DNA of 61,616 nt, filler included. It is 15 parts of 15 records of this genome, joined end to end, with 100 filler letters (N's around TTAATTAATTAA, not from the genome) between each part and the next. Parts side by side here need not be neighbours in the genome. Positions count along the whole stretch, not along the records: positions 18,939 to 23,073 come from SRR15195285_16589; 14 more parts are not named here. The stretch is one strand, 5' to 3'. Numbering within the stretch: position 1 is the stretch's first letter; every line of letters begins with the position of its first letter. The notes below the pieces were generated by a model. It made no database searches, had not been told where the DNA came from, and saw only the letters and a program-made list of their open reading frames with translations. The position numbers and the translations under genes are program-made. Shown here piece by piece: positions 4,269 to 23,173 of this stretch.

Positions 4269-4368
4269 NNNNNNNNNNNNNNNNNNNNNNNNNNNNNNNN
4301 NNNNNNNNNNNNTTAATTAATTAANNNNNNNNNNNNNNNNNNNNNNNNNNNNNNNNNNNNNNNNNNNN
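4269..4368. other. Artificial contig-joining spacer (first of 14; others start at about 8142, 11353, 15464, 18839, 23074, 27567, 33465, 36787, 41355, 45316, 48749, 52813, 56858)
   Basis: Identical N44-TTAATTAATTAA-N44 blocks with stops in all six frames. Confidence 0.99.
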
Positions 4369-17061: not shown

Positions 17062-18838
17062 CTAGTGAACTTCCATTTGCTGGCTAGCCCCAAGGTCTTC
17101 TGCATCTAGGTCGTCAAAATCATCGAACCCGTAGTCATCGTTGTCAAAGCCAAAACCACCCGCTGGTGGAGTCACAACCTTGGGTGGCGTCACAATTTTC
17201 TTCGCCGCCGGTGGAGACGCTGCTGCTGCTGGAGCAGGGGTGCTACTCCACGAGGGCACAGGCGCTGGAGTCGGAGCAGGGGCCCACAAAGACGCGCTGG
17301 AGCTCGGCGCCGGCGCCGCAGCCGGAGCTGGAGCACCAGGAGCTTTGGAGCCAAACATATTCTCGGCGGCGGTGTCATCGTCTTCAAACCCATCGTCATC
17401 GTAACCATCATTGTCGAGGGCAGCTGCCAACGGATCACCGTAGCTAAAACCGGACTTCTTTTCTGGGGCGGGAGCAGGAGCCGGGGCGTCAAAAATTGAA
17501 GCTGCTGGAGCGGCACCGCCGCCACCACCACGGCGCCCTGCTCGTCGCCCAGTGCTCGGTGCGTAGCCACCCACACCGCCGCCGACGTCGCCACTATCAC
17601 CGGAGTTGCTGTCAAAGATCGACGAGGGTGGCGGTGCTGGCGCTGGGGCATCAAAAAGCGACGGTGCCGCTGGAGCTGGCGCGGGCGCGGGCGCGTCAAA
17701 GATTGACGAAGCCGCTGCAGACGGCCCACCGCGTCGGCCTGCTCTAGGTGCTGCGCTCGCGAAAGGATCCGCTACCGGCTCAGGCTCGTCGAAAATCGAC
17801 CCGCCACCACCGAAGACGCCACCTCCGCCACCCATGCCCCCGGCACGTCTGCCCGCTCGCGGCCCAGCGGCAAGGGCCTCGTTCTCCTGCGCTGCTGCCA
17901 CCTCCAACCGTTTCAGCTCCGCAGCGCGCTCTTCTTCCTGCTTGCGCTTACGTTCCCGCTCCTCTTCCTCTGCCTTGACCCTGGCTGCTGCTGCAGCCTC
18001 CTCTTCCTTCCTCGCCCGCTCCGCCTGCTCCTCCGCATCTCGCTTCCGTGCGGCTTCCGCAGCTTCTTCTTCTTCTTGCCTGCGCGCCTCCTCCTCGCGC
18101 TGACGCTCCTTCGCCTGCTCAGCCTCTCTCCGTCGCAGCTCTTCCATTTCTACTGCTTGCTTGGCCTCCCGATCCTTTCGCTCTTCCTCGACCTTTCTCC
18201 TGGCGTCCTCAGCTTCCTGCTCAAGCTGCTGAGCTGCCGTGAGACCACTGCCACTGCCTGATGACGGAGTCGCACCCACATCGTTGGTATCGCTCGAGCC
18301 ATAACTGAAGCCACTGCTCGCTGGCTTCTTCTTTTCCCATGGCTTTGGTGCCTTCTTCTTCTTCTCCCAGGGTGCCGGCTTGGAACTTGACGCTGCGGGA
18401 GCCGGAGCGGGGGCGGGGGCTGGCGCCGGAGCTGGCGAGTCGAAGGTGTACTGCTCATCGTCGCTATCTACGGCCGCAGCGAACGGCGCAGGTGAGGGTG
18501 CATGCACGTACTCTTCCTCTGCATCATCATCATCATCGAACGTGTACTGCTCGTCATCGTCAGGAGAGGGCGCCGCTGCGGGTTCAGGTGCTTGAACTGG
18601 TTCAGGCGGCGGAGCGGGAGTCGGTTCTGGTGCATTATCGTTGCCGTAGCTGAAACCACTCGATGGCTTATTAGCCTTCTTCTCCCATGGCTTCGGCTTC
18701 TTCTTTCTTTCCCAGGGCGCTGCCTTCGTCTGGTCAGGCTGCACAGGAGATGCTGCAGGAATCGACGCTGCAGCCTCGGCCGCAACTCGGGCGGCTTCTG
18801 CCTCCTTTGCGAGCTCCGCGTCCACAGCGGCTTTATCC
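17062..18838 (-). CDS. Low-complexity Pro/Ala/acidic protein with charged helix and repeated short motifs; 5' partial
   Basis: 587-aa open frame; repeats PWEKK, SGFSYG, DDEQYTFD, S(I/L)FD(A/E)P, RAGRR. Confidence 0.7.
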
Positions 18839-19150
18839 NNNNNNNNNNNNNNNNNNNNNNNNNNNNNNNNNNNNNNNNNNNNTTAATTAATTAANNNNNN
18901 NNNNNNNNNNNNNNNNNNNNNNNNNNNNNNNNNNNNNNGGAGGAGGAGGAGGAGGCGGAGGCGGAGGCCCTCGTATAGTAGTCGAGAGGGCTCTGCGGCA
19001 GCTGCCCGTCAACACCCGAGGGAGATGAGCTGAGGGGCGTGGGAGTGTGTGCGGCAGGAGGGGAGCTCGCTGGCCAGTGGGACGGAGTGGACGTCGGTTG
19101 ACGAAACTGACCGGCGGCGGCGTGCTTGCGGTGGGGTCGCTGCTGCAGCC

Positions 19151-22100
19151 ATGGCGGAGGAGGCGTTCGGTGGGTTCAGCCCGGTCCAGCAAGTGACGGA
19201 TGAGTCCACCATCGATGTGCTGGAGTCGATTCCACTGTTCGCCACCCTGCTGCGAGCCCAGCTGGTTCAGCTCGCTGGCGCGCTCAAGCGGCGCGAGGTA
19301 GCGCAAGGAGAGAGCGTCGTTGCAGAAGGCGAGACGGGTGACGTTATGTACATCGTAGAAAGCGGAGCGCTGCAGGCATCCGTTGCTAGTGTCGGTGTCG
19401 TGATGACGTACGGAGCAGGTGCTTTCTTTGGCGAGCTGGCGCTCGTCAACGATGAGCCTCGTAAGGCAACGATCACGGCAACCGATGCCAGCGTGTTGCT
19501 CGAGCTAAGCCGCAGCGACGTGTCTCCAGTGGCATCCAGCGCGCAGCTTAAGGAAGGGCTGGAGGACATCGAGAAGTCATACGCGGCAGCAGTCAGGACC
19601 CAGATCGAGTCGATATTCAGACAGATGGATTTGAATGCTGATGGTAGCTTGGACCCCATGGAGCTAAACAAGCGCCTTTCCGGGCTGGACATTGAAGAAC
19701 AGTACATCGAGAACGTGTTCTACAGCATGGACACGTGCGTGCCGCATCAACGCAGCCTGACTGCGCTGCCCCAGTCAGTCTTGCAGACTTGCGCCAACTG
19801 CACCTGTCAACCTGAAACTTGTGCTTTTTTGACTTCTGCTGTGCTCTGGCGCGATTGCGTTCGTTCAGGAACCACAATGGTATGATCGACCTCGACGAGT
19901 TTGTGGCGGGGTATGACAAATACATGGCGCTTGTGCGCACTGGTAAGTTTCTCGGTTCACAGCGCAAACTGAAGGCGGAGCACTTTCTTAAAACAAACGA
20001 TGAAATCCCGGCTGATGCGCGGGTCGTGTCAAAGTGGTGTGGTGGTACAATCAAGTTGCACAAATCCACCTACGAAGCAAACGACCCATCCGAGGACAGG
20101 TCAACGCTCGCAGTTGGAGATGATTTTGTGTTCTGCGGAGTGTGGGACGGCCATGGCGGAACGGCGTGTTCTTCATTCTCTGAAACGCAGATTTTCGAAA
20201 ACTTCCAGAAGGCTTTAGGAGATCCGCGCTGTGCTGGCGTACAAGACGCATTTGCCTACAGCTACATTCAAACCGACGGTGAATATCTCGACTACGCTGG
20301 CTCAAATCCGTCCTCGCTGTTCGCCGGGACGTGTGCAGTTGGGGCATACATCGATCTTACCACCAAGTCGGTGAGTGTGTCCAATTTGGGCGACAGTCGA
20401 GCGGTGCTCGGGCTGTTCAAGGGCAACGAGCTAGTTTGCGTGCCAATGTCCGACGACCACACAGCTGCGGACGAGGCCGAGAATGCTCGGTACGCATCAA
20501 GCATTACTCGCTTAACGCGCTGCTCTCTACCTTACAATTACGCCGCACGCGACCGCTGCAGGGTGAGGGCGTTGCACCCAAACGATCCAGGATGTGTGGT
20601 ACAGATGTCTGAGGAGGATGATGATTGGTAAGCTGCCTTGCCAACAGCTAGATGCATGAATCATTTTCACTCAGTTTCTTGCACGGTGTTGCGTAGGCGT
20701 GTCAAGCAAATATGCGCGTTCACACGAAGCATTGGCGACTGTCAAATGAAGGACAAAGGCGCAGCAACTGTGTACAACACCTACACAACCCGGAAAGTAA
20801 TGCCTCGTCCAGGAGTTCGTGCAAAGGGCGAGGCGGCCAAAACTCTGCCGTATATTGTCAACGTGCCAGACTACACAGAGCATAAAGACATGGGTGACGG
20901 CTTCCTGATCGTTGCTTGTGACGGAGTGTGGGACGAGATGAGTAGCGAAGAAGCAGTCAACATTGTGGCTCGACTAATCCTAGAGAATGCATCTAATGAC
21001 AATGATGTGCGGATAGCGCTGTCACCCACACCACGCCAACTCACCGTAATGGCCAACAGTGGTACTACTGACTCAGCGTCTGCGCGTCTGCTTTCTACAT
21101 ACTGCTTAGGTCGCGGAGCTTTTCATCGAGGAAGTACTGAAACACGCTGTGACCCGGTACATTAAGTAGACACCGAATGCCCACTAGCATGAACGTCAGT
21201 AACGTCACCAAGTCAAATTTTGTTGAGATTGCGATCGTTTATGTGCAGATGCCGTGAGAGTTACGACGAGGAGGAAGATCTGACTCTCGCTGAGCTGAAG
21301 AGTCGCCCCCCAGGGAAGGCAGAGTGGAGTAGCAGGTCACACCTGCACGATGATATCACAGTGGTCATACTTCACTTTGTTGCAGAATCGTCTAGCGCTG
21401 AGGGTCTGAAAGAGAAATATACGACGGTGGTTGAAGAAGCAATTGTACGTAACCACCAGTTTATGTGCACGGATGCTACCGTGGAAATTTGCGGCTTCTG
21501 CGTTCCTTGCACATTGACATTCGGTTGTGGTGGAATGTTGTCGCTGCGTATCTGGCACACAGCGAGCATCAGAGAGCCAGTTGCTTCGCATGGCGCGTGA
21601 GATTTTCGACAAGATCGACGTGGATGGATCAGGATCGATCACGGCTGATGAACTGGCCTTGCTTGCACGACGGTACGTCGGCCCCTTCGTCTGGCCGCCG
21701 ATGTAGTTGCACCTACAGGAAGTTGGTCTGCGTTTGAATTTACACGGTGTGATTGTTTCATGTTTGGTATGATGCAGGGCCGGTAGGCCAATTGAGGGGG
21801 CTGCGCTGGTGAAGGCCATGCAGGAGCTTGACACGGACGGGAGCGGTGAAGTTGACTTCGAAGAGTTCTCTGTGTGGTGGCCGAAGTACTGCGCCCGACT
21901 GACGAGCACACGGAATAGGAGTGGCTTTGATGGCGTGCTTGGTTCGGCAGTGGATGAGGTGGCGAGCCAGCAGTCTGAAGAGCGCGTGCAGTTTGACGCA
22001 CAGCTGCTGCAGGTAGTCAAGTTCATGGAAGGCAAGGACGCGTCGGAGCTCAAGGTAGAATTTGAGGGATTGGTGCGTCGACACCAGACATGTTGCGAAA

Positions 22101-22514
22101 ATCATCTCAAGCAACTTTACTCGTGCCGGCGTGCGCTTCCGGCTCAAACAGCTGAGCGTGAACAACCTGTCACTGCTTTGCGCTGCTGCAACTGCTGCAT
22201 GCAATCACAGGATGCCGATAATAGTGGTGAACTGGATCTTAGCGAGGTTCTGGCGCTCGTGCAGAAGGTTTTCGGTGCGCTGCGCACGTGGACTCACCAT
22301 GGTTGGATTGCATCGATGCATTTGTTTCCTTGCTAGCGCACCTTATTGTTGAGACTCATCTCGCAAAACAACGCGCGCCTGTGTGCTCGCGTGCGTAGGA
22401 GAGGATGTGGATCCAAAAGTTGTGAACGCATGCTTCGGCCAGATGGACGAGGACGGTTCAAAAGCTGTCGATTTTGACGAATTCTGCAGTTTCTTTGGAG
22501 TGAAACAGTTATGA
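19151..22514 (+). CDS. cNMP-binding + EF-hand + PP2C (PPM) phosphatase + EF-hand multidomain protein, multi-exon
   Basis: FFGELALVNDEPRKAT (cNMP); GVWDGHGG, NLGDSRAVL, TRSIGD, IVACDGVWD, HDDITV (PP2C); six DxDxxG-type EF loops; GT-AG introns link the ORFs. Confidence 0.88.
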
Positions 22515-23173
22515 TATCTTGATGTCTGCACCCCGTGCCACACCTGTGCTACACTCGTGCAGCCCAGCGCGTTGCCCCAGCGCACGTAGCCAACCCAGCC
22601 ACTGTTTCTCTTGCCCGATTCGAGTCGTTTGTGGCGGTGGCTAGAGTCAAACAATCGACAACGGTCCACCGAAGAGCCACCGAAACAAAACCCTTTTGTG
22701 GGCGCGCTTCCCTCGCCAATGGTCTGGCGCTCAGTGTCAGTTTTCGAAGGTAGCCGGACTAACTTTGGGTTTAGCTCAGCAAGACTCCATGTTTCAAGAA
22801 TCGTCGGTAGAAAATGACGCCACGAGGCAGTCGCATCCTCTGCAGCCACACACTAGCCCAATCGACCAGTCTCACTCATCCGCACAGGACAACCGACATT
22901 CCATGAACCCCACCACCACCCCAACGCCAGCGCTGACCAAGGACGCAACGGAACTCTATCGAGCGTTGCGCCTTTTTAAAATCGCGAATGGGCTGTGGCT
23001 GACACGTGTCCTCAGCATAGGCTATGTTAATACAGCCGTTTCTAGGCGTCTTCACTGGACTCCTGGCGTTTGTNNNNNNNNNNNNNNNNNNNNNNNNNNN
23101 NNNNNNNNNNNNNNNNNTTAATTAATTAANNNNNNNNNNNNNNNNNNNNNNNNNNNNNNNNNNNNNNNNNNNN

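Follow-up and report, generated by a model that had tools for sequence, protein, structure and literature searches.

Can a eukaryotic phosphatase stand under the direct, joint control of cyclic nucleotides and Ca2+ on a single polypeptide chain? Both messengers are usually read by kinases, channels and exchange factors, and their control of phosphatases is seen as indirect. The question is raised by a locus in the window, by which we mean the whole stretch of DNA that was analysed (61,616 nucleotides): positions 19151-22514 on the + strand hold a single eukaryotic gene, from a marine protist, of 10 exons and 802 codons (2409 nt). According to Pfam and the spliced model, its product consists of a cyclic-nucleotide-binding (CNB) domain, two EF-hands, a PP2C domain resembling that of pyruvate dehydrogenase phosphatase (PDP) and four more EF-hands, in this order. 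We consider it probable, at roughly 60%, that the gene encodes a real, expressed single-chain phosphatase of the PPM/PP2C class (a predicted activity), nearest to the PDP type and controlled in cis jointly by cyclic nucleoside monophosphates (cNMPs) and Ca2+.

The exon model draws on reading frames, on alignment to the homologs P0001 and P0007 and on RNA contigs, of which those labelled X2, X3 and X4 are marine metatranscriptome contigs from three studies. In a six-frame reading of 19151-22600, the coding frame switches at GT..AG boundaries, and all nine introns (69-138 nt) have GT..AG ends. The start codon at 19151 is the earliest ATG downstream of an in-frame TGA at 19031, and all four relatives that cover the N-terminal end have a Met within ~10 residues of the start encoded there. 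A TGA stop ends the gene at 22514, and both ends coincide exactly with those proposed in a first-pass annotation of this DNA; that annotation made no mention of the nine introns or of the EF-hand 2 loop being interrupted by the first of them. The gene comprises the following features:

19151..19734, + strand: exon 1, with the start, the entire CNB, a long helix leading on to EF-hand 1, EF-hand 1 itself and the two residues that open the EF-hand 2 loop
19427..19480, + strand: phosphate-binding cassette of the CNB, residues 93-110
19628..19663, + strand: EF-hand 1 loop, residues 160-171, with D, N, D, G, D and E at positions 1, 3, 5, 6, 9 and 12
19735..19868, + strand: intron 1, 134 nt, GT..AG, interrupting the EF-hand 2 loop
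19730-19734 plus 19869-19899, + strand: EF-hand 2 loop, residue 194 onward
19869..20489, + strand: exon 2, with the remainder of EF-hand 2, a conserved connector and the N-terminal half of PP2C (Pfam PP2C, 49.1 bits)
20562..20627, + strand: exon 3, PP2C, an acidic stretch with a terminal Trp; joint 20626/20696 in X2 and X3
20697..21006, + strand: exon 4, with RSIGD and CDGVWD in the C-terminal half of the PP2C core (Pfam PP2C, 50.5 bits); joints in RNA
21110..21156, + strand: exon 5, PP2C helix; joints 21006/21110 and 21155/21248 in X2
21249..21444, + strand: exon 6, the last part of PP2C, with the metal motif HDDITV, followed by a variable linker
21563..21672, + strand: exon 7, EF-hand 3 (loop 21617-21652; EF-hand_6, 29.7 bits); joint 21444/21563 in X2, X3 and X4
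21778..22072, + strand: exon 8, EF-hand 4 (loop 21830-21865), a spacer and the entering helix of EF-hand 5 (EF-hand_1, 28.4 bits); bordered by joints 21671/21777 and 22071/22210 in X2, X3 and X4
22211..22274, + strand: exon 9, EF-hand 5 (loop 22211-22246), from RNA joints and Pfam
22399..22514, + strand: exon 10, EF-hand 6 (loop 22446-22481; EF-hand_7) and the TGA stop; joint 22273/22398 in X2, X3 and X4

The CNB and the phosphatase meet across the joint of exons 1 and 2. Exon 1 is one open frame, which P0079, P0082 and P0095 each span as a single stretch, and intron 1 is missing from the cDNA-like L001, while P0001 and P0231 align over the joint without a gap. L001 is a 2417-nt contig of a close relative, found by scanning a metagenome collection, and it matches the window exons in nine blocks at 87-95% nucleotide identity. 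As it lacks introns 1, 2 and 4-9 (eight of the nine), L001 derives from processed RNA; it retains intron 3 (69 nt, L001 1152-1220), where a stop follows the Trp codon. Its 5′-open, 384-residue open reading frame (ORF) contains, in one frame, a cNMP_binding domain (9e-17), an EF-hand pair (3.4e-10) and PP2C (1.6e-16), and a second ORF contains the remaining PP2C and four EF-hands, so that all six EF-hands lie on L001. P0231 likewise carries the CNB, EF-hands 1 and 2 and the N-terminal half of PP2C in a single ORF (440 residues, on a 2880-nt contig); it is 52-53% identical to the window protein and comes from the 16-member cluster of P0095. EF-hand 1 itself aligns with the extreme N-terminus of the P0001 family. 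Based on the shared CNB/EF-hand 1 exon, L001 and P0231, the fusion is genuine and has been kept in two lineages or more. The first-pass view of one gene with one RNA is thereby borne out: one exon joins the CNB to EF-hand 1, and one frame of L001 joins CNB, EF-hands and PP2C.

For the window's own sequence, introns 3 to 9 (seven of nine) are present as GT..AG joints in the X2-X4 contigs, and a loose end at 20490, which fits the exon 2/3 joint, speaks for intron 2. These contigs also cover 19084-19386 within the CNB exon and leave 19456-20100 uncovered; the link between exons 1 and 2 comes from L001, P0231 and homology. The check for a single transcript that had been suggested in the first pass was answered in part, by the joints of introns 3-9 and the splicing of L001, whereas the window's own RNA contigs lack the exon 1-2 bridge. 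Another run filed as RNA, X1, yielded a 987-nt contig (20274-21260) that is unspliced across introns 2-5; it stems from carried-over DNA or from pre-mRNA, and we counted it neither for splicing nor for expression. An assembly artefact, in which two adjacent genes or a chimeric contig were taken as one protein, seems scarcely credible. The fragmentary assembly (a contig of 4.1 kb) and the lack of any RNA contig of the window's own allele across intron 1 would speak for it, but the CNB and EF-hand 1 share one stop-free exon, the same junction recurs in P0079, P0082, P0095/P0231 and L001, all from other assemblies, and introns 1 and 2 have been spliced out of L001.

We ran Pfam on the exon translations, with cut-offs of 27.5 bits for cNMP_binding, 20.3 for PP2C and 30 for EF-hand_7. 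Residues 48-125 match cNMP_binding (PF00027) with 63.7 bits (E 1.5e-17), PP2C (PF00481) is found in two exon pieces (E 7.9e-13 and 3e-13 for the scores listed above), and EF-hand families match five exon pieces, one in exon 1 (residues 152-174) and the rest on four later exons. Some of the single EF-hand exon pieces score below their Pfam cut-offs; on the L001 ORFs, EF-hand_7 pairs reach 40.6 and 86.5 bits and PP2C reaches 61.2 and 52.8 bits. No kinase family was found by Pfam on any exon, as the first-pass annotation had stated.

The hallmark residues of each module are in place. In PKA, PKG and Epac, the Gly-Glu and the Arg of the phosphate-binding cassette contact the ribose-phosphate, and the cassette of the window protein (FGELALVNDEPRKATITA, residues 93-110) keeps both, with a Lys after the Arg; in alignment A2, all four sequences agree at F93 to L98, P103, R104, A106 and T107. 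In a canonical 12-residue EF loop, positions 1, 3, 5 and 9 (-X) supply oxygen ligands and position 7 a backbone oxygen; position 6 is usually Gly, position 8 is hydrophobic and position 12 is a bidentate Glu. Loops of this kind begin at residues 160, 194, 627, 663, 744 and 781, and all six show the pattern, loop 6 with a Lys at position 6. The acidic motifs of PP2C enzymes (ED, DGHGG, DG, DD/DN) have metal-binding roles established on PPM1A; their counterparts here are SEDR (269), DGHGG (288), CDGVWD (498) and HDDITV (576), and alignment A4, of 20 sequences, shows no variation at H154, G155, G156, D371, G372, D450 and D451. Thus, the domain content read from the sequence in the first pass stands: a CNB with an intact cassette, in which Lys rather than Thr follows the Arg, a complete PP2C with its Asp-containing metal motifs, and two plus four EF loops, all of whose quoted strings recur in the spliced model.

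Comparing the window protein with L001 (696 of 762 residues identical), we obtained a ratio of nonsynonymous to synonymous substitution rates (dN/dS) of 0.118 over all aligned residues (41-802). By region, it is 0.119 for the CNB, 0.225 for the helix plus EF-hands 1-2, 0.051 for the connector (residues 216-262), 0.14 for PP2C, 0.224 for the linker (587-614) and 0.053 for EF-hands 3-6. The RNA contigs show eight exonic variants, of which seven leave the protein unchanged. Judged by these ratios, every part of the protein is under purifying selection, and the CNB appears as constrained as the catalytic domain.

This bears on a rival scheme, in which the EF-hands regulate a phosphatase that responds to Ca2+ only, and the CNB no longer signals cyclic nucleotides, serving instead as a dimerisation, docking or structural module. 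CNB-homology domains of some channels have such roles, the sister form P0001 shares the core but not the CNB, and orthologs differ (Lys or Phe) at the position that follows the cassette Arg. We nevertheless regard a Ca2+-only enzyme as unlikely, given that the cassette Gly-Glu and Arg are invariant in A2, that the dN/dS of the CNB lies near that of the catalytic domain and that its Pfam score exceeds the cut-off (63.7 versus 27.5 bits).

Structural models were built with AlphaFold2 (AF2) on two relatives, P0236, a 53% identical ortholog comprising the CNB and EF-hands 1 and 2, and P0001. The P0236 model (mean predicted local distance difference test score, pLDDT, 64.0; predicted template modelling score, pTM, 0.51) places the CNB strands across residues 27-101 and shows the beta-barrel fold, with mean pLDDT in 10-residue blocks of 76-90 (residues 1-70), 63-70 (71-90) and 92 (91-100). 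A helix spanning residues 113-140 (pLDDT 60-70) terminates at the first residue of the EF1 loop. In this model, the CNB C-helix, which acts as a lid in PKA, PKG and Epac, appears to be identical with the entering helix of EF-hand 1. On the same helix of the window protein, Tyr144 is invariant in A2 and lies 40 residues past the cassette Arg, a position that we take to be close to that of the capping aromatic residues in PKA and PKG, as a lead rather than a result. Against PDB sequences, exon 1 has 120 matches at E ≤ 0.001, the best being the CNBs of apicomplexan PKG and of the yeast PKA regulatory subunit.

The P0001 model (mean pLDDT 75.2, pTM 0.66) has a PP2C core with block means mostly of 86-98 and C-terminal EF-hands of moderate confidence. 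Through this homolog, which is 65% identical to exon 2 of the window gene over 100% of the exon, the catalytic domain has the PP2C fold: Foldseek matched the model to 366 PDB chains at E ≤ 0.001, and all the matches listed are PP2C-fold proteins. The top three are PDP1 (6v0t, E 1.8e-15; 3mq3; 2pnq_A), followed by other PP2Cs. By sequence, exon 2 has five PDB matches, to PPM1K and PDP1 only (E 2e-6 to 3e-5). The enzyme could on these grounds be taken for the pyruvate dehydrogenase phosphatase of its organism, with a PDP1-like Ca2+ dependence built in as EF-hands. We consider this very improbable, as identity to PDP1 is ~20%, the sequence match (E 4e-6) extends over just 55 residues and PPM1K scores equally. 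Furthermore, the acidic N-terminus (MAEEAF...) runs straight into the CNB, which would be unlike a mitochondrial presequence, and the GST or SAM N-termini on paralogous forms argue for a general signalling subfamily of PP2Cs.

In the mechanism that we favour, cyclic nucleotide bound at the cassette would move the CNB C-helix, which is predicted to form, without interruption, the helix that enters EF-hand 1. From EF-hand 2, the leaving helix would connect to the first PP2C strand via the short, highly conserved connector, and in this way the N-terminal module could inform the catalytic domain of whether cNMP and Ca2+ are bound. At the C-terminus, the four-EF, calmodulin-like module, held on a more variable tether, would provide a second Ca2+ input. 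Targets would then be dephosphorylated as a joint function of cNMP and Ca2+, making the enzyme a counterpart of the PKG/PKA kinases and of the calcium-dependent protein kinases (CDPKs). As modelled, the route from CNB through helix, EF pair and connector to PP2C looks built for allosteric transmission. If this is true, the 'off' arm of phosphorylation would be wired directly to second messengers, and the protein would be a small, naturally occurring scaffold on which to study how movements of the CNB and the EF-hands reach a PPM core, with the cNMP-less P0001 type as a natural control.

Alternatively, the PP2C could be constitutively active, and the sensors could govern its location or choice of partner (targets, membranes) rather than its rate. 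The linker between PP2C and EF-hand 3 differs in length and sequence among homologs and has a dN/dS of 0.22, which would suit a flexible tether. The connectors on the N-terminal side, on the other hand, are short and the most conserved (0.051), fitting allosteric coupling better than a tether, and no targeting motif or membrane segment was seen when the sequence was read by eye. Control of location alone thus seems improbable to us.

Several observations weigh against joint allosteric control by cNMP and Ca2+. P0001, the closest complete relative, has no CNB, so that the cyclic-nucleotide input is an add-on and not essential to the family. The prediction of a continuous helix is of moderate confidence (mean pLDDT 64) and was made on a 53% identical relative, and the N-terminal EF pair of the P0001 model has pLDDT values below 50, so the model does not give its packing on PP2C. 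At the transcript level, no RNA contig of the window's own sequence bridges exons 1 and 2. Finally, the CNB exon contains a point, 19271/19272, at which two independent assemblies are interrupted, so that an isoform with a shortened CNB may exist. The first letter of L001 corresponds to 19271, and in one X4 contig 19272 is preceded by 120 unrelated letters, in frame from an ATG; an AG dinucleotide lies at 19269-70. An alternative first exon may thus yield a form lacking the first 40 residues. X2 and X3 contigs pass through 19271/19272 uninterrupted. Further X4 loose ends lie at 19129 and 19427.

As for the identity of the nucleotide, the Lys after the cassette Arg predicts neither cAMP nor cGMP. 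Across 465 cassette-like matches in 283 proteins gathered here, this position holds Ala in 195, Thr in 86, Ser in 55 and Lys in 32, some of the latter linked to kinases. Among orthologs, Lys is found in the window protein, P0079, P0082 and P0093, and Phe in the P0095 cluster. The CNB may prefer cAMP, and the protein might act as a cAMP/Ca2+ coincidence detector (AND gate), as the first-pass annotation proposed. The CNB of P0050, a protein of 857 residues with ELMO, cNMP and PH families, is 59% identical to that of the window protein and has an identical cassette string, including the Lys; P0050 hints that this CNB type may have been shuffled among signalling proteins of the same organisms.

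How rare is the architecture? Querying with exon 2, we obtained 44 proteins at E ≤ 0.001 among 877 candidates, comprising 22 with EF-hand plus PP2C, eight with SAM plus PP2C and three with GST plus PP2C; cNMP_binding is listed for none of the 44. Conversely, exon 1 yielded 30 proteins at E ≤ 0.001 among 7605 candidates, none of which has PF00481, and one of which (P0074) is a bacterial-type cNMP-SpoIIE protein. A profile of A2 matched 36 proteins at E ≤ 1e-10 among 8000 scored candidates, and the only two with cNMP plus PP2C, P0272 (Phytophthora) and P0274 (MMETSP), both have kinase domains. Of the 31004 proteins that an exhaustive HMMER search returned at E ≤ 0.001, the best 150 include six short ORFs that run from the CNB into EF-hand 1 without interruption: P0079 (80% identical to the window protein), P0082 (71%), P0093 (70%), P0095 (52%), P0172 and P0184. 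A full-length CNB-EF-PP2C-EF record was not found by these protein searches of the scored candidates, because the CNB-EF relatives are exon-sized pieces of fragmentary assemblies. In a protein cluster atlas, exon 2 matched generic PP2C clusters only (score 0.80).

The core without the CNB is far more common. A family without a name, which includes P0001, P0011, P0012, P0022, P0040 and P0043 and is found in marine protists, has the same domain order, PP2C motifs and four C-terminal EF loops, and the window protein aligns with it without gaps from EF-hand 1 to the C-terminus. P0022 and P0040 are Amphora coffeiformis entries named 'Calmodulin' in UniRef. P0001 (677 residues, on a transcript-sized contig) starts 16 residues ahead of EF-hand 1, where the window protein adds ~145 residues (CNB and connecting helix). 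In a quick tree of 47 rows (the gene model, P0001-P0044, P0231 and P0242; 588 of 1768 columns kept), the window protein and P0231 fall inside an 11-row clade with a Shimodaira-Hasegawa-like approximate likelihood-ratio (SH-aLRT) support of 100. The clade also includes the P0001 group, which has no cNMP domain, and the P0007 group, the members of which are truncated at the N-terminus; branching inside it is not resolved, so gain and loss of the CNB cannot be ordered. Another member is P0043, a fragment labelled COSAG01 in EukProt, COSAG being co-assembled single-cell genomes of Picozoa (PMC8599508). As far as these sequences indicate, the clade includes Picozoa, and the N-terminal CNB is confined to a small sub-lineage within it. 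The core of two EF-hands, PP2C and four EF-hands thus belongs to a widespread and apparently uncharacterised family, in which only the addition of the CNB is rare. Of the first-pass impression that the architecture is unfamiliar, the part that concerns the CNB stands, as this addition is rare and undescribed in the literature searched, whereas the EF-PP2C-EF core is widespread.

The same PP2C subfamily carries varied N-terminal modules, namely an EF-hand pair, GST (P0004, P0005 and P0008) or SAM (eight proteins), and each type of module occupies one side of a tree branch. The comparison of homologs suggests that a sensor or adaptor module may have been swapped repeatedly at the N-terminus of this subfamily. 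Whatever the role of the CNB, the locus exposes a sizeable family undescribed in the literature searched, EF-PP2C-EF, with EF-hand, GST, SAM and CNB modules at its N-terminus. In its boldest form, our proposal would make the window protein the first directly cyclic-nucleotide-gated eukaryotic phosphatase, a cNMP and Ca2+ AND gate whose PP2C would be switched on (or off) only with both the CNB and the EF-hands occupied. One rigid helix, common to the CNB lid and EF-hand 1, would pass the signal, and the CNB would have been added to an older Ca2+-sensing PP2C in a picozoan-related lineage; we offer this combination tentatively, as a doubtful but possible account.

The gene's own contig covers positions 18939-23073 (4.1 kb), and genes outside these limits are not its neighbours. 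Overall, the window is eukaryotic DNA and consists of ~15 contigs of 3-6 kb joined by 14 spacers of the form N44-TTAATTAATTAA-N44, located at 4313, 8186, 11397, 15508, 18883, 23118, 27611, 33509, 36831, 41399, 45360, 48793, 52857 and 56902; as separate contigs were joined, neighbourhood across spacers is meaningless. Three other ORFs on the gene's contig, 21340-22053 (- strand, antisense), 22346-22849 (- strand) and 22696-23073 (+ strand), were taken as non-coding, having no Pfam family at E ≤ 0.01. On another contig, 17062-18825 (- strand) is a low-complexity open frame of 587 residues, in which Ala, Pro and Glu abound and units of PAPAP and KKKxPKPWEKK recur.

How, then, does the protein compare with known systems? 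No EF-PP2C-EF or cNMP-EF-PP2C protein is described in the literature searched, the coverage of which leaves out most subscription journals, and the only PP2C plus cNMP forms met in our searches are the plant/oomycete PP2C-cNMP-kinase and the myxobacterial PP2C-cNMP proteins. The former, represented here by P0272 and P0274, resemble the window protein in having PP2C and a cNMP-binding domain on a single chain. They are PP2C-cNMP-(inactive) kinase proteins of uncharacterised function, such as PITG_08304 and PITG_09375 (PMC3019232). Their CNBs are just 28-30% identical to that of the window protein, and their order is PP2C, cNMP domain and inactive kinase, without EF-hands, whereas the window protein has an N-terminal CNB and no kinase; the difference in order from the plant type, pointed out in the first pass, agrees with that source. 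Among bacteria, three myxobacterial PP2Cs (Mxan4398, sce2855 and sce6950) have a C-terminal cNMP domain (PMC2887360). They and the cNMP-SpoIIE type of P0074 share with the window protein a PPM fold plus one CNB and a proposed regulation by cyclic nucleotides. Both differ from it in being prokaryotic and in lacking EF-hands; in addition, the myxobacterial CNB is C-terminal, and SpoIIE belongs to another PPM subfamily.

The logic of control is familiar from kinases. CDPKs place a catalytic domain under a calmodulin-like EF-hand module in cis, and PKG and PKA place one under CNB domains; the window protein shares this cis-control logic but differs from these enzymes, which are kinases that read one messenger each. 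A CDPK-like autoinhibitory junction was not identified in the window protein. The nearest solved fold of the catalytic domain, PDP1 (6v0t, 3mq3, 2pnq), has neither EF-hands nor a CNB, and its Ca2+ dependence acts via the E2 lipoyl domain. EF-hand, Ca2+-regulated Ser/Thr phosphatases are known in PPEF/RdgC, PP7 and calcineurin, all of which have the PPP fold. Unlike the window protein, they are thus not of the PPM fold, and they have no cyclic-nucleotide sensor; an EF-hand phosphatase of the PP7 type is in print (PMC2559854). What is new in the window protein is how familiar modules are combined and ordered, and the PP2C subfamily that carries them is likewise undescribed in the literature searched.

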